A stretch of 63,602 bases of DNA, counting the filler, from Sphacelaria rigidula (Eukaryota), in NCBI GenBank assembly GCA_964200075.2. It is 10 parts of 10 records of this genome, joined end to end, with 100 filler letters (N's around TTAATTAATTAA, not from the genome) between each part and the next. Parts side by side here need not be neighbours in the genome. Positions count along the whole stretch, not along the records: positions 12,743 to 19,012 come from CAXNAA020021100.1; 9 more parts are not named here. One strand, written 5' to 3'. This document shows, piece after piece, positions 6,272 through 62,442 of the stretch (its first letter is position 1; each line of letters opens with the position of its first letter). Both the position numbers and the translations under genes were made by a program. Below the pieces are notes generated by a model. That model saw only the letters and a list, made by a program, of their open reading frames with translations, ran no database searches and was not told the origin of the DNA.

Positions 6272-6371
6272 NNNNNNNNNNNNNNNNNNNNNNNNNNNNN
6301 NNNNNNNNNNNNNNNTTAATTAATTAANNNNNNNNNNNNNNNNNNNNNNNNNNNNNNNNNNNNNNNNNNNN
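6272..6371. other. Artificial contig spacer N44-TTAATTAATTAA-N44 (first of nine)
   Basis: Identical 100-bp spacers at 6272, 12643, 19013, 25383, 31753, 38123, 44493, 50863 and 57233. TTAATTAATTAA gives stops in all six frames. Intervening contigs are 6270-6271 bp. Confidence 0.98.
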
Positions 6372-9625: not shown

Positions 9626-10095
9626 TCGTCCAAAGTCGGCATCGCAGGATCAACGCCTACGCTTCCGTCGATTCAAACCGCGCGTGTGTGAACTTTCGTC
9701 TCTTGTTCCATCACTGGTGTGGATGTAAAGAGTCGGGAAGAAGCGCTCCCTGGGGTTGAGACTACAGATAGTACCCTCATAACGTTGGAGACCGGATCTC
9801 TGCTCATAAGACTGGCTGGCCGGGGTCACGGAGATCTAGGCTGTCTGTTGTTCGTTACTTGTGGCCTATGTACATGGTAAAAAACTAGGCGCCTTTAACC
9901 ACTTGGCAAGGGTACTCCATACTGGATCATGCATACACTTGTTTGCATGTGAAATTGAAGCCGATCCAACGTATGACCTACGCCCGCCGACAAGGGCTCA
10001 ATTAACCCTTCGACGGCAAGGGTAGGTCGTGTGTTGAATCGGCATCGATTTCACGTTAAAATAGTGTGTATGGTGCGGTAGTCCATCTGGATTAA

Positions 10096-10254
10096 CCCTC
10101 TTGGGACCGGACTCCAAGATACATGGTGTTCGCACGCAGGGACTTTTTGTGAATGGGCATCATTTTCAGTCGTTTTCAAGTAAAAATGATGCCGATTCAC
10201 AAAAAGGCCACTGCGTACGAACACCATGTTTCTTGGAGTCCGGTCCCCAAAGGG
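10096..10254. mobile_element. piggyBac-like MITE
   Basis: TTAA|CCCTCTTGGGACCGGACTCCAAGA ... TCTTGGAGTCCGGTCCCCAAAGGG|TTAA. The element is a near-perfect hairpin with CCC/GGG termini and a TTAA TSD. Confidence 0.85.
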
Positions 10255-10590
10255 TTAATCATCCTCCATTAAGTGAAGATCGATGCCGATTCAGCAGGCG
10301 ACCTGCCATCGGGGTCAAAGGTTCAAGTTTACACGTCAACAAGACTACATGCTACAGTACAGTCCCCCTCCCAGAAGTTGGCGGTTGTCTTTGTGTGGGC
10401 GGTTGGGCGGTTGGCTTTGTGTGATCTCCAGCTGAGACTGCTGTTGACACTTTGCCATCATTGCATGAAACAGTAGTATTGTGAAAGTGTTTTGAGTGTT
10501 TCATGGTACATGGTACAGGATGTGCATTAGGTACCAATCGGCTCATATAAAAATACTGACAAATCACAAAACCATCCATCATATCGGGCA

Positions 10591-12166: not shown

Positions 12167-12742
12167 TACAAGGGAGACAACCTAAAGTTACGATCTGAAG
12201 TTCTGGTCGTTAATTTATGATTGTTTTTTTTCCAACAAACTGAATAGCAATCACCTCAACCCTAAAACCCTAACCCCAACCCTAGACATAAGAGACCCGC
12301 GGGTAAGGGGGGTACATAGATTCCTCTATGCGAAGTTTGCGTTGACAGACGTCAAATCGACCCTGCAGGCGTCGATTTCGACAAAAACACGCTCTGGATG
12401 AGCTGGGTCCACTGCTCACCTGCCCCACACCATAAATTTTCTCGGAACTTTCTCAATTGTAAAATCAAGTCGTCATGTTGTCAACCATGGATATACGACC
12501 AAAGCTTTAGTTTGCTCCTCTCGTGAATGTGGAATATTTGTAATTAATTTGAATACCAAATGTGACGCAACGCAAACCAAATCATACCGCAACATGCACC
12601 TTGGTGCATGTGATCCTTGCCGCCAATGTATTCCCTACTGTANNNNNNNNNNNNNNNNNNNNNNNNNNNNNNNNNNNNNNNNNNNNTTAATTAATTAANN
12701 NNNNNNNNNNNNNNNNNNNNNNNNNNNNNNNNNNNNNNNNNN

Positions 12743-12804
12743 GTAGGGATGCGAGGTCAATGGTCTGATGACTATGGCATGCATGATCACGAGTACACCC
12801 TCCC
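12743..12804 (+). repeat. Dispersed structured element, subfamily A (at contig edge)
   Basis: GTAGGGATGCGAGGTCAATGGTCTGATGACTATGGCATGCATGATCACGAGTACACCC. Confidence 0.8.
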
Positions 12805-13169
12805 CGCCTCTCCAAATACCAGCCCAAAACTATCATGAAGAAAATGGCTATACAGCGCCTCATGTTTGGTATCAGGCTGCATAAAGTGCCTTAAATGGGT
12901 GACATTGGCGAAAACGAACCGAAACGTGGGAAATCCCAGCTGCTCTTTATGCTCGGCTATTTTCATTTCACTTTACGGGCAGAGTTTACCTCCCCGTCCC
13001 AGCCATTTGTTTTTTTTCGGGAGGGGGTTATTGTAGAAACACTCAAGTGTTAACGCGGTTGTTGAAATAGTGGCGAGAATCACGGTTGGGCGTACGACTA
13101 TCGCACATTCGTTTTTGCCATCGGCGCATGCTGATTCACTATCCTGTAATTTGGAATACCCTTGCCCAG

Positions 13170-14460
13170 GGCCTCGCAAGGAACTGTGACGACGGGCAAA
13201 CAAACAGTGCGTTCAATACCATTGACGTCAGTAACCAATGATTGATAATTCCTTTCCCTGTGCCATGTCTTCCTGCTGTTATTATACCCATGGGCGAATA
13301 GCGAAGTCAGGTATGTCCCTCTTAATGTTAGGAAGTAGGGGGGAATCCAGAAAGTGGTTGCTGGCCCTGCTGTCCACTTCCATCGTAAGTGGGGTTACCA
13401 CGTGCATATTCAGATGATCTACTAGGTTCCCAGCACGAAAGGTATACCCAACTCCGCTTGGTGGAGAAAGTTCCGTAACAGTCGCTGCAGTAGGTACACT
13501 TGATTGCTGGACATTGGTGTACGTAGGTACTGTAGTTGAAGTGAGAGTTGTAGTAGCTGTATTCGCCTGATTGACAGGTCCATAATTCTCTATGTTTTGA
13601 TGGTTATTATTGTTACCACAATTACGGTCGTGACTGTTGGTTCCGGTTATTGCCGTAGCGATTATTACTCTTGGGTTCAGAGCTACAACTTGCGTTCCCA
13701 TCATTCATTTAATCTTTACACTCTGTTATCACGTTTATTTGTTGTGTCGGCTACACCATTTAACGTGTCGGCTGTTGCGCTGCTTCCTAGATCTGCAGTC
13801 ACGCATGAGGTCACCAGGTTTCCCGCAATCATAACATTTATTCTGAGATTTGGTGGACCTTGAAGACAAATCTAGGGGTGATGATGCATACATAGCACTC
13901 TCTGTACCTATAGATTTTCTCACAGGTTTACCACGAGCTAGGCGGTTGACATATAGGTTGCGCATAGTTGATTCGATCTGTGACAGGCTACAATCAGGAT
14001 CTCGTTCAGCGCCGTGTTTAATTTGAACGTTATCATCAGTTAGCCCTTCTATGCATATATAATGTACTATGTCTCTAGAACATTTTGTATGAGCATCGTC
14101 GTTATTTCGAGTGACGCGCGTACTTGTGATCGATACTGATTGGCTCATTTCGGTTTCCTTTCTTCTGCATTCAACTGACTGTGTAATTGGTCGGTCATTT
14201 CCCCCGATACACAGTGCCCGAAATGGGGCCCTATCCACGAGCATAACAGTACAGTATACTAACTGCGTGGTGAGGCTCAAACCTGTCGAAAGTATGGCCG
14301 AGGCTTGTTTGTAGTACACAATATTCGACTGTCAACTTGACAGGAACAATCGGTTCACCACGTGAACCCAGCTCTGACAAGAGAGCTCGCAGAGGCTGCA
14401 CAGTGTTGTTCAACACTTGCTTGTGCAACTAAAGAAGAAAATATGTTTGACAGTTAGCGC
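13170..14460 (-). mobile_element. Decayed Ty1/copia LTR retrotransposon (gag and protease remnant)
   Basis: Broken ORFs give gag-like ICIEGLTDD..QIK..ERDP...SLSQIESTMRNLY, a degenerate zinc knuckle KCYDCGKPGDLMRDC and a copia-type protease motif LTMEVDSRASNHF (DSGAS-x-H). Stops and frameshifts separate the pieces. Confidence 0.8.
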
Positions 14461-14913
14461 TTCACTCGGCCGAATAAACACAATGAAACACTCGTTTTTT
14501 ATTCACGCAAAAACCAATAACAAGCTGGTAGGCTTGATTGAGTGGAGAAATAATAGAGAGTGACCACGAGTTGGTATTTCAGAAAACTGTCCTATCTCAA
14601 CAAAACCTCTCGTACTATGAACTGTACGACTGGAACTATATGACCATGAACTCTGCATCCACAAACTCATGATACTATAGACTCTTCGAGTCAAGCTCCT
14701 CACTATTCTGATATTAACAGTTTGATCTATACATTCATCAACCCTACGTAACCCTACGGTCAAAACCCGTTCGTACTGTCTGTTCTACTTGCTACTTATG
14801 TTGCGGCTCATGTTGAACTGTAGCTAATTCTACCGCTCAAGTTGTATACAGATATGAAATGGATTTCTTTCCAGCACACTAAATGGATCTGCTCGCGACA
14901 CGGTCATTCGCAG

Positions 14914-14961
14914 GTCTTTACCGCCGTTCGCAACGGCAGTGACAAGGTCTACGCTATCAAG
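14914..14961 (+). CDS. Ser/Thr protein kinase exon (subdomains I-II, catalytic Lys)
   Basis: cattcgcag|VFTAVRNGSDKVYAIK|gtatca, with an alternative stronger donor G|gtgagt after RFR at ~14985. VYAIK is the kinase AxK motif. Confidence 0.65.
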
Positions 14962-16655
14962 GTATCAAGGAGATCGAGGTTCAGGGTGAGTACGCGTTTT
15001 TTAGGCATGAGCAGCATGATATCACACTGGTTAAAGCTGTTGAGAGTTTCGAAAAATAGAGAGTTTTGGAGCAAATGGAGAGTTTTGGAGAAAATAGAGA
15101 ATTTTGGAGAAAGTAGAGAGTTTCGAAAAATTACGAATCTTATTCCAGAGTGAGAGTGGAAGAGTTTCAGAGCGGAAGCTTTTGAAACTTCAGGGTGGGC
15201 GGTGAAAAGTTCACAACGGAAGCTACTGTGACGTGACTTGATGTCGATTTTTTTGTCGCAGTAATTGCCGCAAGTCGTGCTGCCAAATGTGCGATTGGCC
15301 AGCGTCCGGTTCGAAAATGCATAGGTCAGCACAGCACTGTACAGCAGTAACCTTTCTGTGTTGTACCGTACTTTGCGGCACCATACCGTACATTACGCGT
15401 AACTTCACTCGCAGTACTTCACTGCACTGCAGTGCCCTACGGGATGCTGTAATGCATTGCAGTATACGGCACAGACAGCGTAATGCAATGCAATGCAGAA
15501 CCCTACAGTGCTTTGCGGCACGGTAAGGTACAGCGATACTGTACAAAACAAACGTGTGGCAGCACTTCCAAAGAACAGGTGAAGACGCATGACAACGAGT
15601 TTCCAACGTGCCACCCATGCAAGAGAAAGGAGCTGTGCCCAAGGCGACGTCCTGTGCGTGCTGAGCATTGAGTTTTTCGCAACAAAACCAAGCGAATGCT
15701 GATACCATGGCAGCATCGGGTCGTTCCCCTGATTACGGTGCCAAGGGTGGCTACTTCGTGGCTGTCCGTCGTGATGAGCATGACAGTTGTGATGGATGTC
15801 CCATGATGTTTGCTCGTCAGGGTATGTTGATTGTGAACTGGCTGTGACAGTGGTGGTGGGGGCGGGAGCGGTTCCATTTCTTCCCACTATGAAGTTTGAA
15901 GAGGCACACCGGTATATAGAGTGGAGTGCTCCAAACGGGACTCTGACGCTGAAGAAAAGCTCACGCTGAACTTTGCTTCATAGTGGAACACATACCGTTA
16001 CCGGCTTTTGTCTTCTTTTCTTTTCACTCTGACTCTAAAATACCGAAAACACATTCTCCGAAAGTCGATTATTCTTTTTCGCGTGTTAGATTCAGGCCGC
16101 TCATTATAGCAGACAAAAATATATATCTGGAGAAGTGGCTTTTTGGAGCTATTAAGTCGTTTTACGCCCTAGAAGAGAGCTAGGCGGATTTCGACACCTT
16201 GGAATGGCTTGCTGTACTCGTTGGGACGTTTCCAGCACACCTGTGCGTTTTCCCGGGAGCCGCATTTGTTTTCTTGCCCAGATTTGCATTTTTCTCGGAG
16301 ATCGCTGTGGCCACCAGAAAAGCGCATCTCAACGAGCACAGCAAGGCATTCCAAGGTGTCAAAAATTGCCTAGCTCTATGTTAGGGCGTGAAACGACTTA
16401 AACGCTCCAAAAAAACACCTTTCCAGATTTATATTTTTGTCTCCTACAAGGAGCGGCCTCAGAGTGGAAGGGGGAAGAACTGGTGATGGTATACGTTCCA
16501 TTATTATAACATTTCTGGGGTCAACTTTCAGCGTCACATCAGCTTCCGCTGTGAACTGTTCAGCGTCAACTGACAGCGCCCAATCTGAACTCTCGAAAGC
16601 TTCCATTCTGAAGCTTTTCCACTCTGACGTTGACATGAAGTTTCGATTTTTTTCC

Positions 16656-16791
16656 ACACCCTGGACAATAGATCACGTTGTCGAAGAGTGCACTGCGTAC
16701 GATATGGACTATTGCGTCTATTGCAGTACACGAAGGATTCCATACTGTACGCAGTACACGTTTTGACGATGGAATACATAGTCCAGGGTGT
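16656..16791. mobile_element. Small MITE (ACACCCTGGA TIR family) nested in another repeat
   Basis: ACACCCTGGAC..GTCCAGGGTGT. The body is homologous to 61413-61558. It interrupts a repeat family also seen at ~15050-15250 and 15890-16650. Confidence 0.65.
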
Positions 16792-16865
16792 TACTTTCCA
16801 CCGAACCTCTCTATTTCAACCTATCAAGTAGCACCTTTCTCGCCTTCCCACCTGATCTACGCAAG

Positions 16866-16903
16866 GTTGTACATCGAAGTGCACAGCGTATAAGTTCGCG
16901 GCG
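16866..16903 (+). CDS. Probable short kinase exon linking subdomain II to helix alphaC
   Basis: Branch-point-like CTGAT and gcaag|GTTGTACAT...TCGCGGCG|gtgagt, encoding VVHRSAQRISSR(R). Phase 0 in and phase 2 out, compatible with both neighbouring kinase exons. Confidence 0.5.
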
Positions 16904-17212
16904 GTGAGTATACAGCAGGCAGGAAAGGACCAGGAGAGCGAATTTTATTATGTTGTTGGTCAATTAGGCTCTACAGCAAAATGACATAGTTCACTTGCAC
17001 AGTTTTTATTTTCAACAGACGGCTGTAGTGTCAAAGATGATCTGATGGTAATGATCTCTTAGCTATGTTACCTAGTCTCGAAAATGCAAGACTCGTGCAC
17101 CGCATCTCGTAGCTCATGTCGTTCCTCAGACTGTGCGGCATCATTTGACCATTCATGCTACGATTTGATCCTGCACGCCCTTCGTCGCTGTATACCGTTT
17201 GTTGAGCCCGTC

Positions 17213-17485
17213 TGTAATGCGTGAGGGGATCGCGTGCTTGGGGGACCGCATCGGAGTGTGTAAACAATCCTATGGTTAGTGTTAGTGTTAGTGTTAGTGT
17301 TAGTGTCAGGGTTAGTGTTAGTGTTAGTGTTAGTGTTAGTGTTAGTGTTAGTGTTAGTGTTAGTGTTAGTGTCAGGGTTAGTGCTGGGTTGAGGGTTAGG
17401 GGTGTGGTCCCTGCAGGGACTGGCCCGATTGGTTTTGAAAACTACGATGCGGTCCCCTGAGCACGCGGTCCTCTCACGCATTACA
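17213..17485. mobile_element. TGT...ACA MITE with ~40-bp TIRs and 5-bp TSD (Ginger-like), containing a (GTTAGT)n array
   Basis: TIR TGTAATGCGTGAG(A/G)GGA(C/T)CGCGTGCT. TSD ccgtc/tcgtc. Internal (GTTAGT)n and GGGTTAG at ~17275-17400. Confidence 0.75.
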
Positions 17486-17820
17486 TCGTCTACCTCGGCG
17501 ACAAATGCCCTCCATTTTCCATTCCCGATATCAGAATACAATTAGCAACACATTCTCCGAAGGCACGGCGACTGCATGACATGCGTAAAGAACAGCTGTA
17601 CAACGTAAGGCTATCTGCCGTAAGAATACTGGAAGATGCATCTAAACGCTATGTGAGAGTATATCCAACATACCGGCGGGAGCTCTCCACTGGGCACTTT
17701 TGACGGCAACGCCATATTCGCTGCACAAGCGTGACTGCGGGTTCACCAACCGCGGGTTAGAGCTACGTTCACAACATCCTGCACTACTGTAGTGCTCGTA
17801 TGCAACACACACGCACACAC

Positions 17821-17896
17821 CTGGAACGTGTCCACGAGGTCGATAATGGACGGGTGGCTCAGGTATTGCATGATTTCCACCTCATTCATCCAGGCC
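17821..17896 (-). CDS. Intact-looking kinase exon (subdomains III-IV), antisense to the upstream kinase exons
   Basis: gtcgacaag|G-AWMNEVEIMQYLSHPSIIDLVDTFQ|gtgtgt. Retains the alphaC Glu and the L-x-H-P-x-I-I-x-L motif of CAMK-like kinases. Confidence 0.7.
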
Positions 17897-17994
17897 CTTG
17901 TCGACTACCGTCGGTGGAGTCATGCCAATGCAGAGGAGGGATCCGATCCCTTCTTTGCATTGACATGGCTCTACTACCGACGGTAGTCAACACG

Positions 17995-18070
17995 GGCTTG
18001 GTTGAATGGGGTGGAAATCGTCCAAAACCTGGGCCATCTCTACCTCATCAGCCTCGTGGATACATGTCAG
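17995..18070 (+). pseudogene. Degenerate sense copy of the same kinase exon
   Basis: Same 76-nt length, encoding AWLNGVEIVQNLGHLYLISLVDTCQ (alphaC E to G, HP to HL). Acceptor AAG is changed to ACG; donor gtgagt is intact. Confidence 0.65.
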
Positions 18071-18185
18071 GTGAGTGCGTGTGTGTTGTATACGAGCACC
18101 ACAGTAGTGCAAGATGTTGTGAACGTAGCTCTAACCCGCGGTTGGTGAATCCGCAGTCAAGCTTGTGCGGCGAACATGGCGGTGC

Positions 18186-18396
18186 TGTAATGCGTGAGAG
18201 GACCGCGTGCTTACAGGACCGCATCGTGGTTCGAAACACCTCAGGAGCGACGTTTTCCAAAACCAATCGGGCCAGTTCCTGCAGGGGCCACGGCTCTGAC
18301 CCCAACCCCAACACTAACCCTAACCCTGAGCCTTACCATAGGGGTGTTTGAATTACGGTGTGGTCCCCTAAGCACGCGGTCCTCTCACGCATTACA
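18186..18396. mobile_element. Second copy of the TGT...ACA Ginger-like MITE (opposite orientation)
   Basis: Same TIRs; TSD ggtgc/gttgc. The empty site (catggc-gttgc-cgtc) is visible in the other palindrome arm. Internal CCCAAC/CTAACC units. Confidence 0.8.
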
Positions 18397-18844
18397 GTTG
18401 CCGTCAAAGGTGGTCAGCGGAGAGCTCCCACCAGTATGTTGGCTATTCTCTCACATGGCGTTTGGATGCGTTCTCCAGTATTCTTACCGCCGATATCGCT
18501 TTGTGCACTTGGCTTACTTAGACCGGCTCGGTCTCTCCATAGGAGACACGGGCATGCGTGCTCCCTGTGCCTCTCGGGAGGTTTTGCCTCCACTACAATC
18601 CCTTGTACCTTGTACGAGCGCGCGCCGAGACTGAGGCTCTCATTCTGTTCTAGACAGCACACAGATATTTTGGTCTGTCGACACTCCGCTAGGGCACACC
18701 ACTCTGCCCAACGATGGTAGGCTCGCGTCGCAGGAGTGGATCGCAAGAGATATACCATTAGTCGGACTAGATTGTTGATGCACCAGCTCAGCGAGTATCC
18801 TCTCCCCCCCCTGTGTTGGAGGTGTCTCTATTAGGAGTAGGGAC

Positions 18845-18915
18845 GGCGCTCCGCCTCGAAAGGGATGTGTGATCAATGGTCAAACGACTATTGATAAGGC
18901 AAGCAACAAATGAAT

Positions 18916-18962
<47 letters not shown>
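18845..18962 (+). repeat. Dispersed structured element, subfamily B, with long poly-C
   Basis: GCTCCGCCTC-GAAA-GGGATG..ATGGTC-AAAC-GACTA..AAGGCAAGCAACAAATGAATA-(C)n. Other B copies at 25483-25528, 25534-25611, 31637-31690, 51683-51774(-), 55720-55804, 56255-56327, 60249-60321(-), 60328-60376(-) and 60859-60931. Confidence 0.85.
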
Positions 18963-18964
<2 letters not shown>

Positions 18965-20256
18965 CCCCGCCCGCGCGGAACAGAGGAGAGCTCGCGCGGC
19001 GGGCCCGCCATCNNNNNNNNNNNNNNNNNNNNNNNNNNNNNNNNNNNNNNNNNNNNTTAATTAATTAANNNNNNNNNNNNNNNNNNNNNNNNNNNNNNNN
19101 NNNNNNNNNNNNGGTTGCCACATCCTGTGAAAGCTCTCCATTGCGATTGATACTGCTTGATACATCTGTACATTGCCTGATGCGCACAACACCCGAATTA
19201 TAGTACAGACAAGTTTGTACCTGAAAATAGGTTGGATGAAACTTTCGGTCTTCATCTAACCCGGCCGTTACATACATTCGTTGATTTTCAGCAACATGAA
19301 GCCACTGTTTCATGCATGTGCAGGACACGTCATTCCTAACCAGCCTCGTTGATCGGTCTGGAGGCCCAGTCCCAAAAGGTTCAAGGCATAACTCATGACG
19401 TAAATTTTACGTTTTCGTTTCTTCTTTTCCGCGTAAAACCCTTACTGATGCGGTTTTCTCAAGCTATCGATTGTTATAATCCAATCACAATTGACGGTTC
19501 TCGGTAAAATATTCGTTCGATATTTTACCCCGAGCCAGGCCAAGGGTGACTTCCAAAATCATAAATATTACGACATAACTCATTACGGAAATATTTGTTT
19601 CCCGTTTGATTTTCTCCTGCGTGACACTCTCATTGATGGGGTTCTTTCAAGCTATAGAACGTTCCAGTCGCCCAAAAAGCAGAGATTTGGCGTCGAGCCT
19701 TTACTAACTATACGCCACCGTAATACTGCATTCGCGTATCATCTAGAAGCTTGAAATGGCTAAAAGTTATGGGTTTGTTCATCAACCCTTCATCCCCAAA
19801 ATGTGTTATGACAATCCTACACAGGCTGCTTTAGGATGAACGCCCAAAATGTATCTCCTCGCTATTTCTCCCGCAGAGATTGGGAGTGAGACCTTGAAGT
19901 TTTGCCCACGTATACTGTGGGATATTGCGAAAATTTTGATCAATATTCTTCCTTCGCTAGACATGTGGGGTTCGGGGGACCATGCGGTCTCGTGGGACAC
20001 GGGGTATCTGAAAAAAAAAACAAAAAATCGAAGAACTTCATTCATCGAAATTTTCGCAATTTAGCACACATGTGCAAAATTTCAGAATCTAACTGAAAAA
20101 AACCCACGTGAGAAATTGTCGATGAGTGGGGTAAACTGTAATATAATCTGCCGAACCCTCTCATTGCCTTATTTCAGCATTAAACCGACATTTTTTTTGC
20201 GCGTCTAAGCTTACATCCGCCGTTCGAGATCACTTTCAGAGTTACACAGCAAGTTC

Positions 20257-25482: not shown

Positions 25483-25611
25483 GGTCAAATGACTAAGGCA
25501 AGCAACAAATGAGTACGCCCCCCCCCCCACGACGCTCCGCGCCGTCTCGAAAGGGATGCGTGGTCAATGGTCACACGACTGAGGCAAACAACAAATGAGT
25601 ACCCCCCCCCC
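25483..25611 (+). repeat. Tandem pair of subfamily B structured elements
   Basis: Two units, each ending ATGAGTAC..(C)n-ACGACG. Confidence 0.8.
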
Positions 25612-25814: not shown

Positions 25815-28800
25815 GTGGACCCGAGTCAGGGAGCGTGCCTGGACAACGAAACTGGTCTTTTAGTGAATCATGCTTACGGCTTAGTTGACATGAAGGTGAA
25901 GGCAATCAAAACCAACGACGTTTCGAGACGCATGTTCCCCGGCGTGTTATATCTTCGAAAACATCCGTAGATATGATTTGGAGTCGTGCCGTTCTCGATT
26001 GACACGCGTTGGTACCAGACAATAGAGACCGTACATTCTGAGTGATACCAAATAACAATGAAATATCAGTACATTTAGTCGCTGTGCAAGGGTAGTGGCG
26101 GCAGTTTGAGCTTTCACTGGTCCAAAGATGAACCCTGCGGTGCAGCACACGAGTTTTTCAAGCGCTGTGGTTGTCCTTCTTTCCGATCGAGCGTAGGTTC
26201 TGCAAAATGGAAGATCGTTCGGGTGGAGTCACCAGGCCTGTGGCGAGTTTCATCGTAAGGGCAAGCATTTCATAGGAGATCTCATGATCCACTGGCGCCG
26301 TTCATTGATTCCTCGTTCATAGGAATGCTCGGGATTTCGGCTCGTTCGATTACGTAGCCCATGGTCTGAAGGAGATTGGCAGGGCGATTGGTCAGACGGG
26401 TCACCGCTGTGGGAGGACTATCCTGAGGTATCAGCCGTGATACGTCCTTACGAAAGCTACCTCTATGCTGTGACTGCCGATTGCGTCGGCATGTCGTTGC
26501 AAACTAGCGAGTACCCTTGCGAAGAAGGAAGGCTATATTATCCTCCTCGACGATGACATCATTTGTTTCCGTGCTGGGCTAACATGTCTGTAGCCACTTC
26601 CTACAAATTTCTGTACACGTCGGTAAACTGCACAGGAACCGTGGGTAAGGTACCGTACCGAGTGTACCCCCGGTATTTACCGGGGTATCCCATACCGTGG
26701 TATGCGTAGATATCGTAGGTATGAGTTTTACAAACACCTGATTGAGCGGGTACAGTAGGTACTGAAATATCGAAATACCGTGGTATCATAGGTATCGTGT
26801 GTATGAGTTTTGAAAATACCTGATTGAGCGGGTACGGTAGGTACTGAAATTTCAAAATACCGCGGTATCGTAGGTATGAGTTTTGAAAATACCCGATTGG
26901 GCAGGTACGGTAGGTGCTGGTATCTCGAAATACCGTGGCATCGTGGGTATCGTAGGTATGAGTTTTGAAAATACCCGATTGGGTCGGTATCGGTAGGGTA
27001 TGAGATGTCCTAAATACCGGTACCGGGCACCTACCTTACCTACGGTGCCTGTGGCAAACTACAGTCGCTTACCTTTTACGCGATGCCAGTCTTAAGTCCT
27101 CTCATTTGTTTGTTACGCTCATTCTCCTCTCTATTTTTTGCGGGCGATAAAGGGTAATGAACTCTTACACTTGTGTCCATTACCAAAAAGGTGTATTCTG
27201 ACGTGTCCGAAGATACCAGCAGCCCGTGGCAGCGAGATAGCCACGACGGCACGTTCTGGATGGTATTTTCAGACTTCGCGCGCTTGTTTTCTAAGGTGTG
27301 CCTCTGCCGCGTCTTCCCCGACGAGGAATATCGGCAGTACTGTATACATGGTGAGTTAGGTAACCTGTTCCAAAGGTGACACAGCGCAACGGCGGGGAGC
27401 TTATAATGGCTAAAAAAACCACACTGAGCTCCCATGTGCCATAAACAAAGATGTCGCCCAGGATTTCTTTTTTAGTGTTCAGGTTGGCCGTCACATTTAT
27501 TTCGTGTTTTCGCCGTGACAGGAGAGTGGACCGGGAAAACCGCCGGTGGATCGGCGAAGCCACTGCGACGCGGTTCTGTCTCTAGATTGCAGAAAGACAG
27601 TCAGGTGAGTATTTTATCGACTACATGGTAGCCGATGCCACCACTGTATGATCTTAGTCGCTAGTCGGGAGATAGCACGGCTGGAAAAGTGTCACGAGAT
27701 ACACATCTTTTCAGGTATCCCTGCCCGACGACGTGATCATTGCCTTGAAATCTATCAAGGGCAGGTCGAGTAGAGTATACTCACTACAGTATTTTCAGGG
27801 CTATACACGTTACACGTTCACGTTCACGTTACGTTCATCACGTAATTTTTTAACGTTCACGTTACATGACACACGTTACGTAAAAAAATATAACGTTACG
27901 CTAACGTTACATTTGAAAATTCAAGGTGACGTTCACGTTACGTTCATCACGTAAAAAAAAGAATTAACGTTACGTCAACGTTACATTTGAAAAGTTCACG
28001 TTACGTTCACGTTACGTTCATCACGTAAAAACACTGAACGTTCACGTTACGCTTCGACCAAAACGTAACGTGAACGTAACGTGTAACGCTATGGCACGTG
28101 TAACGTGTATAGTCCTGGCTGTACATGTACACGTTCACGTTCGCGTTGCGTTCATCACGTAAAAACAATTAACGTTAACGTCACGTGACGTGTGTCACGA
28201 AAAAAAAATTACGTTACGTTAACGTTTCATTTGGAAATTTAACGTTACGTTCACGTTACTTTCATCACGTGAAAAAAAAATAACGTTACGTTAACGTTCC
28301 ATTTGAAAATTTAACGTTACGTTTTCCTTACGTTCATCACGTAAAAAAAATTGACGTTCACGTTACCTTTCGGCCAAAACGTAACGTGAACGTCACGTGT
28401 AACGCTATGGCACATGTAACGTGTATAGCCCTGAGTATTTTCGAAGAGTCATACTTTTAGTACTCAAATTTTGAGTAGAGTATTTTGAGGTCGTACTCCA
28501 TCTACTCAAATTTTGAGTAGAGTATTTGAGGCCGTACTCGACCTATCCAAAATTTGAGTAGAGCATTAAGGTCATACCCAAGTGATACTCCATACTCAAG
28601 TATTACTGAGAGTGCTTACTCAATATTTGAGCAGAGTATTGGAGGTGGTACTCGATCAACTCAAGTTTTGAGTAGAGTATTTGAGGCCGTTCTTGATCTC
28701 CTCAAAGTTTGAGTAGAATATTTTGAGACCGTACTCCTCGACGATCCGTCGACTCGACTACTCAATGACGATGAGTAGCGCTCTGTACTGAAAATGATAT

Positions 28801-31468
28801 CCAAGGAGTTGAGAGGTATCAAGTATGAACTGTCATGGGTGGGGGCAGGTGAGCTGGGGTAGGTAGGTTCATTCACCTGCACGTTTTGTTTTTTGTTTTT
28901 TCATGGCTATTGTTTGCTCATTATCATTGTAGCCCGTGACGTACCGCCACTCATCTAATTGATGGCTATCGTTGGCCCATGTATTCAAGATAGTCTGTGA
29001 AGGGTCGTCACGAAGTCGCCGACGGTCACGGTTGCTTATCATACCCAAGTGATACTCTATACTCGAGTATTACTGAGAGTGCTTACTCAATATTTGAGTT
29101 GGGTATTGAAGATGGTACTCCATCTACTCAAATTTTGAGTAAAGGATTTGAGGCCGTACTTAACCTACTCAAAAATTGAGTAGAGTATATGAGGCCATAC
29201 TCGACCTACTCAAAGTATGAGTAGAGTATTAAGGTCATACCGACGTGATACTCTATACTCAAGTATTACTGAGAGTGCTTACTCAATATTGGAGTATAGT
29301 ATCTGAGGCCGTATTCAATCTACTCAAATTTTGAGTACGGTATTTCAGGCGGTACTTAACCTACTCAAAAATTGAGTAGAGTATATGAGGCCATACTCGA
29401 CCTACTCAAAGTATGAGTAGAGTATTAAGGTCATACCGAAGTGATACTCTATACTCAAGTACTACTGAGAGTGCTTACTTAATATTTGAGTATAATATCT
29501 GAGGCCGTATTCAATCTACTCAAAATTTGAGTACGGTATTTGAGGCGGTACTTAACCTACTCAAAAATTGAGTAGAGTATTTGAGGTCGCACTCGACGTA
29601 CTCAAAAATTGAGTAGTGTATTTGAGGCCGTACTCGGCCTACTCAAAATATGAGTTGAGTAAATACTCGGGTATTTTACTTGGATACTCAAAAGTACATA
29701 CTCTACTCGACCTACCCTTGAAATCTATCAACCGCTGTCGAAATGGACATGATGGCAAGAGAGAAACCGGTTGATTCCGTAATCCACTGATCGTTGTGCG
29801 CACAGGAAAAAATGAAAGACTCTCTTCGCCGCGAGAGTGTGGTTCATATCCAAGACGACAGCGACCCATATTGGTTCAACAACCCACAGTATCGACTGAC
29901 GGTTAATGATCCCACGGAGGTAGGGGAGATTTCATGTCGTTGGATATTTTAAGTAGTGCCCTTGGATGGTTGACGGTAGATGGTAGACGATAGACGAACC
30001 GCAGTTGCGTAATATCAATGCTCGTTTGAAAATAAATCGGTGGTTATGGTCGCTCGTGGCCGAGCCATCGCTCGCATTGGGTGATAGGCTGACTGTACTT
30101 GGCTGCCTTTTGAATTGTTAATATCGGCTGTACGCCCACTCTGTTCATTTCTCTTCAGTAATCTTCGCGGCTTCGTACGCACGCGCGTCGCCAACTCAGC
30201 ACACCACCATCCACACACACCAGTCACCTACCCATTGCTTACGCTGACAGGTTCATATCAGTTTGATGCAGCAGGACAGAAGATCAGCGAACCACTTGCG
30301 AGATAACTATCGCATAGCCTTCGAGATCATGCGGACAAAGCGTCACAACACACATAAAAGGTCCAGTTCTGCATGCCCGATGCTACACTTGATTTTGTCG
30401 AAAAATAATTGGGAGTAAGGAGTGCCACTAGTGTCCGCTTTCATATCTTCAAATATGTACCCAAGTATTTGCCACCAAGGAGAGCAATCTCTGAAGGCAT
30501 TGACTTGACGTCTCCTTGCAAGACCCCAGGTGGCGAGACTAGGTTTATGTGTATGCTGCTGCGGTTGTCTTGAGTCTTTCGACCCGGACAGCTATCTCAC
30601 TCGGACAACCACTGGTAGACGGAGCGTAGACAATTAACTCGGACATCAAATCATGTTGTCTCATAGGATCTGGGAGAGGAGGCAGGACGATGTTGTGGCT
30701 GATTCACACGAATCGTTCTTCGCGAGCGCGCGTGCGGAACGAGAGGTAACGAGGACAAGCGTTAAGATCGATCCGAGGTGCGTGCGGAAAACAGTTCGAT
30801 GAGTCCAAGTGTTCCCCGTCCTCGCGACTGGGCGATATGACGACAGAGGAAAATGATTGCAATGTGCCCACGGCGGGCTGTCTCTGACTTGCGTCGTCAG
30901 CACGAGAGACGCAATGCCCTATAATCTGGTATTTGTCGCCCTTCTCTTGCGGCAACTATACTGCTCAGCACCATTCAAATAGCTACACTCTTCAAGCCTG
31001 TCGTTGCCTCAGGCACGCCTACAACATCGTCCCACATTCGATGGAGCAGAAACGCGAGGGGAAGTTCACGCTTCGAATTTTCAGCAGAAGAGACGTATGT
31101 GTCGAACCGGTGGCGGAGACACACACTGTGGTGAGCCATCTCGCACTGTTTAGCTGGCCCTCCACATATTCGCAAATGGAGATGCCACGAAGCCCCCCTA
31201 TCGAAACTCTGCAGTACTTCACCACGGCAACGACCGAACGGATTTGACGGAACTGAGCCACCCTTTTGCTGTTGCACCCTCCCTACTTCCCCCCTGCGGT
31301 GCTCCGACGCCATGGTTGTAGTATCTACACGGATCGTGGGATCGCACGTCAGAGCGCGACACTGCTGGAGGTCCCCTTCGACTGGTCGATGAGAACAAAG
31401 GCGTGAAGAACAACCCCAAGTGGTGCCAGAACCCCCAATATCTTCTCAACATCCCTCCAGGGCAAGTG
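25815..31468 (+). CDS. Calpain-like protein, partial: C-terminal half of the CysPc domain plus one complete and one partial calpain domain III; 9 exons
   Basis: GT-AG exons with consistent phases: 25815-25895 (..GLLVNHAYGLVDMK), 26323-26427 (ECSGFRLVRLRSPWSEGDWQGDWSDGSPLWEDYPE), 27191-27350 (..DGTFWMVFSDFARLFSKVCLCR..), 27522-27604 (GEWTGKTAGG..), 29806-29919 (..WFNNPQYRLTV..), 30251-30360 (VHISLMQQDRR..), 30667-30777 (..EREV..), 31013-31130 (..YNIVPHSMEQKREGKFTLRIFS..), 31322-~31468 (GSW..TAGG..WCQNPQYLL..). The catalytic Cys exon lies outside the contig. Confidence 0.92.
26631..27053. mobile_element. hAT-like MITE in a calpain intron
   Basis: TIR CACAGGAACCGTGGGTAAGGTA / TACCTTACCTACGGTGCCTGTG; imperfect 8-bp TSD gtaaactg/gcaaacta; internal GTATGAGTTTTGAAAATACC repeats. 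Confidence 0.7.
27756..29720. mobile_element. hAT-like non-autonomous element with an internal ~40-bp satellite-like array, in a calpain intron
   Basis: TIR CAAGGGCAGGTCGAGTAGAGTA / TACTCTACTCGACCTACCCTTG; perfect 8-bp TSD AAATCTAT; many TACTCAAA..TTGAGTAGAGTATT units. Confidence 0.88.
27796..28433. mobile_element. Dimeric hAT-like MITE (ACGTT-rich) nested in the 27756-29720 element
   Basis: TIR CAGGGCTATACACGTTACA / TGTAACGTGTATAGCCCTG; perfect 8-bp TSD AGTATTTT; an extra internal right end at ~28117 marks two tandem units. Confidence 0.88.
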
Positions 31469-31852: not shown

Positions 31853-34800
31853 TTGGATTGTATGGGTGGGTTTGGGGAGGATGTCGGAGGCGATTTCGGA
31901 GTTGGCTTGCTTTTAGATTTCTGTTGGCTGGCAGATTTGGATGCTCCACGTGATTTTTTTAGTGGCGGCACCTGAAACTGAGCGATTGCGCGGCGATTGA
32001 GAATCTGTTGAAACGCCAAAGAACTGACTGTGACGCCAGCGAGAGATGCAGCCTCGTGGTGGCGTGCTCGGTCAACAGCTTCCTGTAGGGAAGTTACCCC
32101 GGTGCGCAGAAGAGGCTGCGGCAGCGGGGCGACCGTGGTGTCTGTATCCACGGTGCGGACGAAACCTCGGTCACACCGAGGAAAGGTACTTTATAAAACT
32201 TGGAACACCTCGCCAACAATGAACACGGCAGCGGGACTCAGCAAGCGTCATCCACGCAGACTGGTGAACGCAAACGCGGCACCTCCAAGCGTACCGTTGT
32301 CTTCAACGCCTCAAATGCTATGGATGACGACGATTGAAGGTGTGCCACGAATTCAGCGTCCGCGCTTGTAGGGGTAAGTTCGAATGCTGATTGTCTGAAG
32401 TCTAGCATGGGCGTGAAGAGAAAAAAATCTCTCACCACGTCAGTAGCACACAGTCCAGTGTCTTACGGTGTATCTCAATATACTCCGGTGCCTACCTTGG
32501 ATGAAGTTAGTGATATCCCCACTTGCTCATCAATGGATGTTATGTCAGATTGTGAAGTAAGTTCAACGATCGGATCCCCGCCTGTTTCGAACAAGTCTAG
32601 TAGGAAGACACTGGCCTCAACCACTTCCTCCGTATCAAAAAAATGTTCGAAACGTGCCCGCTGTGAATCTGTAACGACAGTATCCAATACGTCTACTGCA
32701 ACCCCCAGTATGAGTGCTGCCATACATGATGAATCCCATCGAACATGGTATGCCTCTTCATTGGCTTCTGTAGACAATTCATTCTCGTTGTCGTTTTCTT
32801 TCCAGCGTGTACGTGACACAGGCTCAATCAACGGTCAAGTCACACCTGATATAACGTTAGACGCTGCTACTGACGTCTCAGTGGCATCGATAGCATTTTA
32901 AAGAATAATCTCGTGCTTCGATCAATCCCACTACATCCTGTCCCTCCCTCTGCCGTAAATTTACGTGCAGCTAACGGTTCACCCCTACAAATCCTGGGGT
33001 TCGCCCGTTTCAAACTCAAGCTGGGTAAAACAACCCGCTCCATCGAAGCACTTGTCGTCCCTTCACTTGGTCCTGACTTGTTGCCACTCGATAATCACTG
33101 TATGTCTAAGTTTGGTGCCACCCTTGATTGGGCAAATCAAACATCGTCTTTCCCTCATGATAGCTTCTCTATCCCAGCCATTCATCGGGAAAATAGTAGC
33201 AACCCCTCATCACAGACGCCTACTGATCAACAATCAGAAATGGTTTCGGTAGTGGCTTTGCATAGAGATGCTGAAGAAATTCCGGTAATACTGCTAGCGC
33301 GGGTCACGCTCAAACCTCAGCATAAGGCAGTCGTCGAAGCTTTTACAGAATATTTGCCAGCGACTAATTGTACAGTGATTGTCGAACGTCGTCTTGTCTC
33401 TAGCGATGAAATGTCACACCCTGACAGTCCAGGAGTGTTTGAATCACTAATAATCGCCCATACATTGGCGACATGGTCTGCTACAGACGGTTTCGTGGCA
33501 GTAAAAATCGCTTATCTATCGTCTCACGAAGTACCATTGCTAGCAAGATTAGTTTTGGGTAATCTCATCACTGTATCTGTCGAAACCCAGAACATTTACA
33601 TGTCAATGCTGTAACGAGAGTCGCCCGAACAGTATCTGAAGTCAACAAAGCAATAGGCGAGCTTAGAAATCCACTGTCCAAATCTTTCGAAGGCTCCACG
33701 TTTATCAAGTCTCAAAAAGACAGCCTTCTCAATTTATGCGCGAAATTCCGCCCTGTTTTCTCTCTGTCAGTGCAGGAGTTGGGCACATGCACCATCACAG
33801 AAGCAGATCTCCCGCTCAAACCAAACACCCGTCCTGTCGATAAAACCCCTTATCGTTCCAATCTCCGCACCCGTGCGATTATTGATAAATGCGTGAAGGA
33901 CATGCTCGAGTGGAACATTATTAAAGAGCGTCCCAGCGCTTGGGGTTCTCCTGTCCATGTTGTCGCGAAAGAGAATGGTGAACCACGATTTTGTGTTGGT
34001 TACCGTGGAACATTGGCCCATCTCTCATCCGCAAAACATGGCTTCTTTCAAATATCGACACATATCTTGATGCAGTTGGCGGTGCAAATCTATTACGGTC
34101 ATGGATGTCATGAGTGTGTATTGGCAAATACCAGTACCCGAAAAAGACATGGATAAAACCGCTTTTGTCACCGAACGTGGTAAGGATTTCTTCCGTCGTC
34201 TCCCATTCGGCATATTATGTGCTCCATGGATTTTTCAACGCACCATGGCTATGGCTCTCGGTCACATAAGGCCAGATTATGGATTTTTTTGCTACATGGA
34301 TGACATCATCTGCCTTAGTTCCACGTTCGAGGAACATCTGAAATCCCTCGAACGTACATTCGCAGCCTTACAAGCCGTGGGCTTAACTCTCAAGCCCTCA
34401 AAAATCCGTTTCGGCCCCGAATTGGTCTCATACCTTGGCCATGTCATTTCTGCCGATGATATTTCAGTAGGTCAAGACCGCATTCAAGCTATCAACGACT
34501 TGCCTACTCCGTCTTGTATCAAAGACCTTCGCTCTGTCCTGGGCATGGTAAATTTTGTGCGTCGATTTATCAAAGATTACGCCGACATCGCAGCACCTCT
34601 GGTCGATCTCACTCGAATAGAATTCACCATCAAACGCCTGTTCAAGAAGGCATGGAGAATTGAACAAGATAACGCCTTCGCTCACATTAGCGATTACTCA
34701 CACCAGCACCAGTCCTAAAAAGTCCGGATTTCTCTTGAGAGTTTGTCGTACACTGCGATGCTGGTGATCTTGGTTCAGGGTCATTCCTCGGGCAGCAGTC

Positions 34801-36930
34801 TAAAGACAGCACCAACACGAACGACGTTGACATGATCGCATATTTCTCGAAGTGTTTCTCCAAATCACAGCGTCACTATAGTCCCACGATGAAATAATGT
34901 TACAGTGTTGTCTGGTCTCTACTTCACTGGAGGTCCTATCTTTGGGGTCGTCATTTCACTTGCTGGACAGATCACCAAGCTCTCACGCATTCATATAATA
35001 TGCAAGACACCAGCAACATGCTAACTCGATGGTCAATCAAACTGCAGAGCTTCGATTTCACGGTGAAACATGTTCCCGGGAAATTAAACGTTGTGCCAGA
35101 TGCGTTATCTCGCCTATTTGGTGGCACAAATGGTGAAGAAATTCCATCGGAACCCAGATTAGCAGCCATCTGCTGTAACGTACCAGATGATCGACCGTAT
35201 CATCGCCCGTCCCTCCAAGAACTCGAAGTATCTGCCTATCAATTAGATTATATACTTCCTGTCGAGAGCGACCGCGACATGTTCACAAGTGCAGTATCTA
35301 TCTTCCCCGTTGTAGATCCCATTCAAATTGCGAAACAGCAACATGAAGATCTCGGTCCTTACATTGACTGTCTCAATAATCCTAAGTCGTCCCCCCTGCC
35401 TCCGGAACCACTCACACGATGAGCTATTTTTTCCTCCACGAGAATTTGCTTTTCCGCTCTTACCTACCAGGTAATTTGAGGAAACGAAGCGATCTTCGAG
35501 ATCAATTAGTGGTACCTGATAAATTACGTCCCCTTATCATGAAAGCGTGCCATCACCTTCCCGCTTCTGGTGGTCATCTAGAGTTCAAAGGTACTTTCGA
35601 TCGAGTGCGTGACAAGTACTGCTTGCCCACAGTACACACTGATGTTAAAAGCCACGTTGACTGTTGCCAATCATGTCAAAGGCGCAAGTCCTCAACACGG
35701 CCACCGGTGTTACCGGTCGGTCACCGTCATATCACAAGAACATTTCAGTGCGTCGCGGTCGACCTCGTTGAGTGTAAGTCCCGCTCCCGAGGAAATCGAT
35801 ACATCTTGTCAGAAATTGATCACTTGACACGATTTGTAGTCCTCATTGCTATTTCCAACAAAGAGGCTATAACCGTCGCCCATCACATAGTGGGACGTGT
35901 CTTTTCCATCTTTGGCCCTCCCGAGACCTTACATTCAGACCAGGGTCCAGAGTTCAAAAACGAACTCGTCAGAGAACTTCAAACCGTATTCGGGTATGAG
36001 AAGACTCGAACCACACCATATCGTCGCCAAGGTAACTCTGTTCTCGAACGAGTCCACAGTATGGTACACAAAATGTTCGCGATGTACAGTGATATTGCGT
36101 ATTCTAACTGGGCAGATATGTTGCTGTTTGTCCAACTGGCACATAACACAGCCTATCCACCCACGCTTCACGAAACACCACACTTTTTGATGTTGGGCCG
36201 TCCCGCCGCACTACCCATCGATCTTATCCTTGATGTGCCGTCAACATCCGCACCCCAGTCTCCCCTGGATGATACGCGCGAAACTGTCAATAAATTGCAA
36301 TTAGCATATGAATTGGTTCGCCGGAATCTCAGAGAACGGTCGGACAAACAAGCTAGTGCAAGCGAAAAGGTATCATTCCCCAAATTTGTCACAGGTGATC
36401 AAGTCCTGATCTACCGTCCTTAAACGGACACTGATGGCCCCAACCCTAAGCTAATCAACCCATAGCGTGGACCATACACTGTTCGTAGTCAGATATCGCC
36501 AGTCGTTTATCGTGTCAGTAAAGATGGCGAAATATCCGAAATATCCGTCCACCTCGGCAGACTAAAAAAATATCGAGCTCAGTCCTCCCCATCTCCCGTT
36601 GACCACGAAGTCCTGGACGAATTGCTCTTAGAAACAAAGTTGCCAATCCCCGATTTGAGCGGTGACAAATCAGTCAAATCAATCACGTTTGGCTTGTTCA
36701 CAATCGCGGGAGTAGATGGTCACAAAAAAGGTGTGGGAGCAGCATCGAAAACGAACTTTCATTATCACCTGAAATTTAAAGATCACCCCCTTCATTGTGG
36801 TGTGTGGCGTCATGTCTCTGCCCTACCCCAATGCACGGAGATGATCGCGTCATATCGTGCGGAAGTCTTGTCGCGGAATTCCACCGCCTTTGATCCGCCA
36901 CAACGGGAATCGCGATCCGTTTTCTCCTGA
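31853..36930 (+). mobile_element. Decayed Ty3/gypsy LTR retrotransposon (protease-RT-RNase H-integrase, chromodomain-like tail)
   Basis: Protease-like TLDAATDVS..LRAANGSPLQILG; RT PSAWGSPV..PRFCV, YWQIPV..DKTAF..LPFG..YMDDII; RNase H VHCDA..AYFSK..TDHQAL..LTRWSIKLQSFDFTVKHVPGKLNVVPDALSR; integrase H..GGH..C-x2-C, VAVDL, HSDQGPEF, LERVH. The order RT-RH-INT is gypsy. Multiple stops and frameshifts. Confidence 0.95.
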
Positions 36931-43770: not shown

Positions 43771-44492
43771 CAGGCTGGTTCACGTTCATCACCCAAAAAA
43801 CACTCATCGGCAAAACCTCACGCCGTTTGAAGGAGGTAGACCCTGAAATTTTGCACGAATGTTTGATGGGTAATTACACAACTTTCGAGGGTCGAGTTTC
43901 TTTTTACTTTTTACCTTTTCACCGTTTTTCGGGGGTCCCATTTTTTTTGTGGAAAACCTCGACCCAATCGGACCCCCGTAAAACGGCAACATAAGAAACA
44001 AACAAAAAACCTCGTCCATCCCAAGTTGCGTAATGACCCAAAGCACAGTTGTGCAAAATTTCAGGGTCTAACTCCTTGAAACGGCGTGAGGTTTTTGGCC
44101 TTTGTGCGATGAAGTTTGCCGTACCGCGGTGAAACCGCGAACTACTTGATTTTAGTACCAAAGCGGCGTTTTTGGGCCTTCTTTGACGTGAACATGGAAA
44201 TTCAAGCATCAGTTGATCGAGTTTTGCGACGAAATTTTGTGGAGTCCACCCTTGGGTTATGCGGGGGCAGATAGTACGCGAAAAAATGAAAAAAAAAGCG
44301 TAGTGCCATTTTTCTGGGGTCCCAGAATGGAGACTACTTCGCAAAACAACTTCGATCCCGTCGGACCCCCGAAAAACGGTGAAAATCTCAAGAAGTTCAA
44401 GAAACATCGTCCGTCCAAAGTTGCGTAATGATACATAGCTTTTTTTATGCGAAGTTTCAGGATCTAACTCCTAATGACAGCGTGAAAGTTTG
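43771..44492. mobile_element. MITE-like repeat with internal inverted and direct duplications (truncated by contig end)
   Basis: AAAACCTCACGCCGTTT..GACCCTGAAATTTTGCAC vs GTGCAAAATTTCAGGGTC..AAACGGCGTGAGGTTTT; duplicated GGGGTCCC..TCGGACCCC blocks. Confidence 0.55.
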
Positions 44493-47279: not shown

Positions 47280-47835
47280 GAGATCTCCGAAAAACCTGCG
47301 TCGATAATAACGGCCATTATTACCGACATTGCTTTTTCGGAGATCTCGGATTCGATCAGACATGTCGGACTCTGCGTTCGGGCTTCTCCGACAACGAAGC
47401 AGCGTGATTTTTCTCCGAACCTCCATTTTGGGGACAAGTCTGGCTATTCAGGACTGCAACCCAGCAATTCGGAGAGCTGCCCTGTGTGTACGCAGTGGCG
47501 CTCAGAAGCTTTAGCGAATCATTTATGTCCGAAAATTTCGATGATCTCCGAAAAAATTGTGTCGATAAAAATGTGCCTTATCGACCCTGTTTTTCCGAGA
47601 TCACCAAAAATTTCGGGCATAAATCATACTCGAAAGCATGTGAGCGCCACGGTGTACACACAGGGCAGCTCTCCGAATTGCTGGGTTGCAGTCCTAAATA
47701 GTCAGACTTGTCCAAAAACAGAGGTTCGGAGAAAATATCACGCTACTTCATTGTTGGAGAAACTCGAACGCAGAGTCCGACATGTGTGAAAACCTCAGAG
47801 ATCTCCGAAAAACAGTGTCGATAATAATGGGCCTT
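47280..47835. repeat. Foldback repeat (MITE-like)
   Basis: Inverted arms ~47355-47530 / ~47610-47785 (ACATGTCGGACTCTGCGTTCG / CGAACGCAGAGTCCGACATGT) with repeated GATCTCCGAAAAA..GTCGATAA blocks. Confidence 0.65.
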
Positions 47836-61969: not shown

Positions 61970-62442
61970 GGCTACTTCTCACGCATAAAAAAATAACACC
62001 TGTTGAAAAGTGCATTTTTGGCACTTCTCCGTCGTTTTCCCCTCGAAAAGAGGGCCAGGGGACACCTTCGAATGACTTTCTCTACTCGCTGAGGCCGTTC
62101 CAGAGCTTTTTTTTTTGTGTGTTTTTCGTAGGTCACGGTTTCGTTTCTGGCCAAACTCGCATTTTCGATACCAAACGGTCAAGTTATCAAAAAATAGTAG
62201 GGAAACCGACATTTTTTTGGCAACTTGACCGTTTTTTGTTGAAAATGCAAGTTTGGCGAAAAACGAAACCGTGACGTACGGGAAACGCAAAGGTGCTCTG
62301 GAACGGCCTCAGCGAGTAGCGCAAGTCATTCAAAGGTATCAACATCTGCCTGGCCCTCTTCTCGGGGGGAAAACGACAGAGTAGGGCCAAAAATGTACTG
62401 TTCAACCAACACGTTTGACTTTCTGATACATGAGAAGTAGCC
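61970..62442. mobile_element. PIF/Harbinger (Tourist-like) MITE
   Basis: TTA|GGCTACTTCTCA ... TGAGAAGTAGCC|TTA; 3-bp TTA TSD; long imperfect internal foldback. Confidence 0.85.

Follow-up and report, generated by a model that had tools for sequence, protein, structure and literature searches.

Site-specific inversion switches are known from the Hin and Gin invertases, FLP of the 2-micron plasmid, and the shufflons. The large palindromes of sex chromosomes undergo arm-to-arm gene conversion, with arms that are more than 99.9% identical and genes that are intact in both arms. To our knowledge, exon switches driven by homologous recombination are not an established form of regulation for eukaryotic nuclear genes. 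For young plant MIR genes, an origin by inverted duplication was reportedly modeled by Allen et al. in 2004. The available portion of an update on the inverted-duplication origin of plant MIR genes covers this route (PMC3237417), and the available sections of two further articles describe Drosophila hairpin RNA (hpRNA) loci that make endogenous small interfering RNAs (siRNAs) against their parental genes (PMC10317233, PMC10292708). Fold-back inversions and inverted duplications arise by hairpin-capped breaks or by template switching, according to the accessible parts of two other articles (PMC7467729, PMC3907307). Here, we describe a palindrome made of two head-to-head copies of a kinase-like exon with flanking intron from Sphacelaria rigidula (assembly GCA_964200075.2), located in a window of 63,602 nucleotides (nt), which is the whole stretch of DNA that was analyzed.

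The palindrome is real and larger than first described. A head-to-head exon duplication with essentially no spacer around ~17944 had been noticed in a first-pass annotation, and global alignment, blastn, and an inverted-repeat search all bore it out. In the mirror alignment, 17612-17944 pairs with 17945-18495, with the turn at ~17944 and a spacer of 0-1 nt. The inverted-repeat search returned arms at 17703-17915 and 17976-18188 (213 nt, 85% complementary), together with a second pair of arms at 17612-17710 and 18397-18495 (99 nt, 85%), and blastn gave 83.8% over 489 nt (E-value 5e-150). The duplicated segment of 333 nt comprises the 84-nt exon with ~40 nt of the intron before it and ~209 nt of the intron after it. 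Across 332 aligned columns, 49 substitutions separate the two arms, along with one 3-nt indel and one miniature inverted-repeat transposable element (MITE). The palindrome and its two exon copies are laid out as follows, where X1 is the sequencing run in which the stretch is best represented.

17612..17944, minus strand: left arm, the inverted copy, with no MITE; X1 contigs 17478-17771 and 17794-17998 match with 0 differences
17944..17945, unstranded: centre, where the arms abut in the alignment, crossed by two contigs
17945..18495, plus strand: right arm, sense relative to exon 1, interrupted by the MITE; X1 contig 18400-18593 matches with 0 differences
17821..17904, minus strand: antisense kinase-like alphaC-beta4 exon, 28 codons from a TAG acceptor, donor GTGTGT
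17987..18070, plus strand: sense degenerate exon copy with an open frame, the TAG acceptor kept, and donor GTGAGT

The identity of the arms varies from 75 to 93% by part.

Inner intron: 34 of 39 matches, 87%
84-nt exon: 63 of 84 matches, 75%
Outer intron: 186 of 209 matches, 89%
Outer intron, 17711-17820 only: 102 of 110 matches, 92.7%, the best-kept part of the stem

No further copy of the palindrome was found in the window by blastn, and there is no direct repeat at 17611/18496 that could represent a target-site duplication. Membership of the palindrome itself in a MITE or foldback transposon family was considered and rejected because it is of low copy, lacks a target-site duplication, and is represented at its centre only by the reference-type contig and one variant contig.

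In structure, the locus agrees with the known inverted-duplication route to hpRNA and young MIR loci as well as with the fold-back mechanisms. Like the plant MIR genes at their origin, it has a segment of a protein-coding gene duplicated head-to-head, a long imperfect hairpin, and extended complementarity to the founder family. Extended similarity between an inverted duplication and a protein-coding gene is one mark of hpRNA and young MIR loci, and the palindrome bears it. Unlike in the plant route, the duplicate lies inside the founder gene and spans its live splice sites, and the host is not a land plant; one of the sequencing runs that contain part of the stretch is labelled algae metagenome. 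The likeness to Drosophila hpRNA loci lies in long inverted repeats from a fast-evolving multi-copy family that could silence relatives in trans; those loci, however, are transcribed as units of their own, and both their siRNAs and the targets are proven. Fold-back inversions likewise have head-to-head copies that turn around on next to no spacer, but they usually span kilobases (kb) to megabases and are often somatic or pathogenic, whereas the palindrome described here has a segment of 333 nt, is old (11-25% diverged), and is intronic. As in inversion switches, inverted repeats surround a segment whose orientation sets the coding sequence that is read; unlike in those switches, there is no recombinase in the piece, there are no defined crossover sites, and the repeats abut rather than flank a unique segment. 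Arm-to-arm conversion as in the sex-chromosome palindromes could explain why the introns are more alike than the exon copies, although the scale is hundreds of nt here as opposed to tens of kb or more.

The window joins ten pieces of 6270 nt through linkers composed of 44 N, TTAATTAATTAA, and 44 N (at 6272-6371, 12643-12742, 19013-19112, and then every 6370 nt up to 57233-57332), and therefore no feature can be read across the joins. The linkers themselves score as palindromes in the repeat search. The palindrome lies entirely within the piece 12743-19012, which ends 517 nt past it. The DNA of the window is eukaryotic and repeat-rich, with canonical GT-AG introns. Parts of the stretch occur, always as contigs, in five sequencing runs that come from two studies, and the figures below refer to the contig pieces, joints, and differing letters that were listed, beyond which a further 38496 pieces, 158 joints, and 215 rows of letters exist. 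X1 may be the assembly's own sample. Runs X6 to X8 are RNA by guess only, and very few of the sampled words occur in them; no RNA run was listed among those that contain the stretch. Two bins lie outside the cover of X8, namely 16800-16939, which contains the second exon of the first-pass annotation, and 17920-18059, which contains most of the plus-strand exon copy, and we counted them neither way.

The palindrome is present in the reads. A contig of X1 (record 6, 205 nt) spans the centre from 17794 to 17998 with 0 differences. A variant contig, found in X1 and X3 and placed at ~17866-17988 by its end distances, carries four other letters at 17916-17931; at 17916 and 17925, they make the two arms agree. 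The variant centre could be an allele, a second copy, or the trace of an arm-to-arm conversion. Run X4, from the second study, contains the left arm at 17758-17915 with 13 differences, and another X1 contig (record 7) again carries the junction between arm and MITE at 18061-18246, with 17 differences. At least six further related contigs from X1 and X3 lie on 17741-17791 and at least four to five on 18561-18693, and one further contig was seen at the centre among those listed. Among the 15 joints listed, none connects opposite strands at the arms. Whichever way the inner segment is turned, the centre-crossing contigs read alike, and the listed contigs do not link that segment to the unique flanks, leaving gaps at 17772-17793 and 17999-18060.

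The gene model in which the palindrome sits was revised by one of these contigs. Record 25 of X8 (504 nt, depth 91.9) matches 14913-14985 over its positions 27-99 with 0 differences (73/73), and the match is bounded by an AG acceptor and by GTGAGT at 14986. The contig looks like a spliced transcript, coming from a run that was only guessed to be RNA. The features upstream of the palindrome then read as follows.

14914..14985, plus strand: exon 1 with the VYAIK motif, 24 codons, 72 nt, phase 0 to phase 0, donor GTGAGT at 14986
14986..17611, plus strand: presumed intron, largely nested inverted-repeat elements (16094-16459, 16656-16791, 15126-16652)
16866..16903, plus strand: second exon of the first-pass annotation, probably not an exon, with no family match and no other copy in the window

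Exon 1 had been taken to end at 14961, and the contig moves that end to 14985. Because exon 1 thus ends in phase 0, the proposed second exon is unnecessary, and neither it nor the three-exon model has support of its own. The acceptor assigned to the minus copy at 17896 also had to be given up, as it produces a stop in that copy once exon 1 ends in phase 0. The kinase frame is reached instead from a TAG acceptor 8 nt further upstream, which puts the first position of the exon at 17904 in the minus copy and at 17987 in the plus copy. This TAG acceptor is kept in both copies, in contrast to the idea that the plus copy had lost its acceptor. Exon 1 ends with ...VSRRSRFR, and the next exon continues with STRAW.... 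Under this read-supported model, 15 residues separate the VAIK Lys from the position of the alphaC Glu, which is Glu in the minus copy and Gly in the plus copy. A Lys-Glu spacing of 15 residues is ordinary for kinases. Judged from its splice sites and frame, the plus copy in the assembled orientation should be fully spliceable and would encode an alphaC without the Glu.

X8 also bears on the exon of the palindrome. Its depth is 91.9 at 17827 and 26.3 over the bin 17780-17919, the latter being equivalent to 40 nt at depth 91.9. From these depths, record 25 seems to carry ~40 of the 84 nt in a form that fits the minus exon at 90% or better, probably 17821-17860, a stretch that reaches the donor of that exon.

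No further kinase exon, including those with HRD and DFG, was found on either strand among the 198 stop-to-stop open reading frames (ORFs) of at least 20 amino acids (aa) in the piece 12743-19012; the minus copy is the only one of these frames to match Pkinase at E-value 1 or below. That the intact exon belongs to a kinase gene of the minus strand was considered and rejected, since no kinase-like minus-strand ORF exists in this piece, although short exons would escape such a search. Neither tblastn nor blastn found other copies of any of the exons in the window. Protein searches found no relatives of the 53-aa minus ORF or of the 40-aa stretch ending in exon 1 among longer proteins. A protein-level scan of metagenomes gave 321 pattern matches, of which 0 were confirmed, and an exact 31-mer of the arm had 0 matches in metagenome contigs.

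The two exon copies differ at 21 of 84 nt and at 10 of 28 residues, with neither a stop nor an indel. Relative to the minus copy, the plus copy has changed the alphaC Glu to Gly and HP to HL. These translations and the donors GTGTGT and GTGAGT agree with what had been described, and so does the asymmetry between a kinase-like antisense copy and a degenerate sense copy. The minus copy matches Pfam Pkinase (PF00069) with 16.4 bits and an E-value of 0.0062 at profile positions 44-68, below the gathering cut-off of 31.7 bits. At E-values of 10 or below, its PDB matches are protein kinases in 46 of 46 cases, aligned at alphaC-beta4, with CDK7 as the best (E-value 0.02). The minus copy thus appears to resemble a protein kinase weakly but specifically. 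The plus copy has no Pfam match, and its sole PDB match is not a kinase. Exon 1 alone has no Pfam kinase match either, and its two PDB matches are beta-propeller repeats. At their length, none of the fragments could reach the Pkinase cut-off. The absence of stops in the plus copy was rejected as a sign of function, since 48% of copies stay open when 21 random changes are simulated.

We favor, with about even confidence, the reading that the fold-back duplication is real, heritable, and not programmed, and that it lies in one degenerating member of a kinase-like gene family with several copies. A segment of 333 nt would have been duplicated head-to-head inside one copy of the gene, in intron DNA rich in MITEs and hairpins. 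Collinearity with exon 1 points to the right, plus-strand arm as the resident copy, and the left, minus-strand arm would be an inverted duplicate placed just upstream. The MITE inserted later into the right arm, given that the left arm shows an empty site. The substitutions, the 3-nt indel, and the MITE that separate the arms indicate that the structure is old and not a sequencing chimera. With the loss of the alphaC Glu and the HP motif from the sense exon, the assembled orientation would encode at best a non-catalytic kinase-like protein, and the locus is, as far as its sequence tells, most likely a decaying paralogue. The intact-type exon in the RNA-like contig most likely derives from a sister gene copy. 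This source is likelier because the fit extends to no more than ~40 nt of the 84-nt minus exon, as compared with 73 of 73 for exon 1, and because related contigs exist. If the locus is transcribed, the sense exon, its two splice sites included, would be base-paired with the antisense arm over ~330 base pairs. The in-frame exon of 84 nt would then be expected to be skipped, or the stem to be diced into small RNAs with matches in the kinase family, or both. Nothing points to a programmed function. Even as a plain fold-back duplication in a decaying paralogue, the locus would illustrate the conversion of gene fragments into long hairpins, from which hpRNA and young microRNA (miRNA) loci are built; it would matter far more if both orientations coexist or if the stem feeds small RNAs that regulate an expanding kinase family.

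Several observations weigh against this explanation. The exon copies have diverged by 25% (21/84) as compared with 11% (28/248) for the flanking arms (Fisher p 0.004), a contrast not expected from neutral decay that follows a single local duplication. The plus copy has 10 residue changes against a simulated mean of 13.1 (P 0.054). The degenerate exon is the resident sense one, which is odd for plain decay, and the remainder of the gene lies beyond the 6270-nt piece. Exon 1 of the X8 contig is identical to that of the palindrome locus, so the contig could have originated there. The paralogue as its source draws on contig counts and depth figures from the listed rows of one mapping, and X1 is possibly the source sample of the assembly. 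The differences between the exon copies cluster, with 12 of them within 33 nt at 17840-17871 (permutation p 0.05). The excess divergence of the exon possibly reflects gene conversion restricted to the exon, with a more distant paralogue or complementary DNA (cDNA) as the donor and one copy as the recipient; arm-to-arm conversion that homogenized only the introns and selection on the plus copy are possible as well. This exon-limited excess is a small but concrete puzzle, which could report on exon-templated gene conversion.

It is unlikely, though the idea deserves weighing first, that the locus is a hairpin-RNA locus, in which the inverted duplication was kept or recruited to produce siRNAs or a young miRNA against the kinase family in cis and in trans. 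The plus-strand RNA of 17600-18510 was computed to fold into one long stem of -665 kcal/mol, as had been predicted for the pre-mRNA; 20 shuffled sequences averaged -305 kcal/mol (z -38.9), and 0 of the 20 were as stable. Provided that the region is transcribed, formation of this stem is certain. The arms hold 84 nt of coding sequence from an apparently multi-copy, expressed family, and the structure exists in two variants and also in the run of the second study. The best-kept part of the stem at 17711-17820 would also suit such a role, but the exon, which would do the targeting, is the least complementary part. Of 34 transition mismatches, 22 pair as G-U in the plus-strand RNA and 12 in the minus-strand RNA. 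This skew counts toward the hairpin-RNA reading, but it is not significant, and selection for G-U pairing in the plus-strand RNA was rejected on that ground. Rfam gave 0 matches at gathering score in the whole window; the resemblance to mir-627 at 17902-17988 (36 bits against a cut-off of 86) is that of a generic hairpin. Moreover, hairpins of this size are common in the genome and mostly repeats.

Rather improbable is the view that the sense copy is functional, being the diverged exon of a kinase paralogue that has become non-catalytic or re-tuned, with the difference between the exons stemming from exon-limited conversion of one of the two copies by a paralogue or cDNA and with the antisense copy being incidental. 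The plus copy has kept its frame, the TAG acceptor, and the stronger donor, and it shows fewer residue changes than random decay would give. Its excess divergence is confined to the exon, where the cluster of 12 changes falls, with few changes in the adjoining intron. These statistics are borderline and concern 84 nt, however, and the copy has lost the alphaC Glu together with any match to a kinase profile. A transcript carrying the plus copy was not seen in the read contigs.

The fold-back duplication in a decaying gene copy also has to be set against the invertible exon or inversion polymorphism proposed in the first-pass annotation, in which a crossover in the outer arms turns the inner segment over, leaving the intact exon in sense in some genomes or cells and in antisense in the assembled genome. 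We consider this improbable to a still greater degree. An inversion would explain why a family-like exon lies antisense beside a resident intron context, and the RNA-like contig whose exon 1 is identical to the locus also carries intact-type exon sequence. In addition, contig coverage is interrupted at either end of the inner segment, and the listed contigs leave the assembled phase unconfirmed. However, a flipped allele should fit the RNA-like contig throughout, whereas the part of the minus exon that fits at 90% or better is only about half of it. An inversion also predicts an exon divergence no greater than that of the intron, and the opposite was seen. At E-value 1 or below, none of the piece's 198 ORFs matched a recombinase or invertase family. 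The arms are short and 11-25% diverged, and short diverged arms are a poor substrate for homologous recombination. A more elaborate version, to which we give very little credence, is a recombination-driven nuclear exon flip with an active kinase in the sense state and an inactive hairpin in the antisense state. Non-crossover conversion would then keep the introns alike, selection would keep one of the exons, and the RNA-like contig would represent the ON state of another strain.

An assembly artefact in the form of a fold-back chimera or a mis-oriented contig join is scarcely credible, although an assembly inversion had been named as an alternative from the outset: long-read libraries are known to yield palindromic chimeras and X1 may be the assembly's own sample, but a technical fold-back is unlikely because 49 substitutions and one MITE separate arms that are only 75-93% alike and because two distinct short-read contigs from two samples cross the centre, and the run of the second study contains the left arm.

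Two copies of the MITE family lie at the locus.

18181..18396, unstranded: MITE in the right arm only, 216 nt, with terminal inverted repeats at ~18185-18235 and 18347-18397 and a telomere-repeat-like core
17212..17485, unstranded: second copy of the same family, 126 nt left of the palindrome

Members of this family have terminal inverted repeats of ~50 nt and a core that is telomere-repeat-like or made of GTTAGT repeats. The copy at 18181-18396 is covered by very many read contigs, and the family probably exists in thousands of copies.

Foldback structures are frequent beyond the palindrome. The search of 62.8 kb returned 26 inverted-repeat pairs in the window, of which 9 were linker artefacts and the rest belonged to the palindrome locus and to 11 other loci with short spacers. 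The other long hairpins lie at 47333-47812, 52310-52781, 43812-44095, 62002-62406, and 10002-10326, and also at 16094-16459, 16656-16791, 28031-28400, and 29125-29533. Arms of 47-223 nt that are 71-97% complementary, with spacers short or absent, characterize these hairpins. The genome thus seems unusually rich in foldback structures, and the 11 other loci therefore suggest a general mutational tendency rather than a device specific to the kinase gene.

Other repeats surround the locus. A dispersed repeat that ends in a long poly-C/poly-G run has 8 copies in the window at three or fewer mismatches (0 expected), located at 18880-18965 and also at 25497, 25583, 51702, 56301, 60250, 60328, and 60905. 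Contig depth peaks for the whole stretch in the bin 18760-18880, beside the copy of this repeat at 18898. An open frame of 198 aa on the minus strand (13738-14331), situated upstream of the kinase-like exon, contains a CCHC zinc knuckle (Pfam zf-CCHC, E-value 0.057) and is probably, by its sequence features, a gag remnant of a retroelement. In another piece of the window, 34071-36423 on the plus strand carries a Ty3-like long terminal repeat (LTR) retrotransposon with matches to RVT_1 (E-value 1.5e-23), Integrase_H2C2, and rve.

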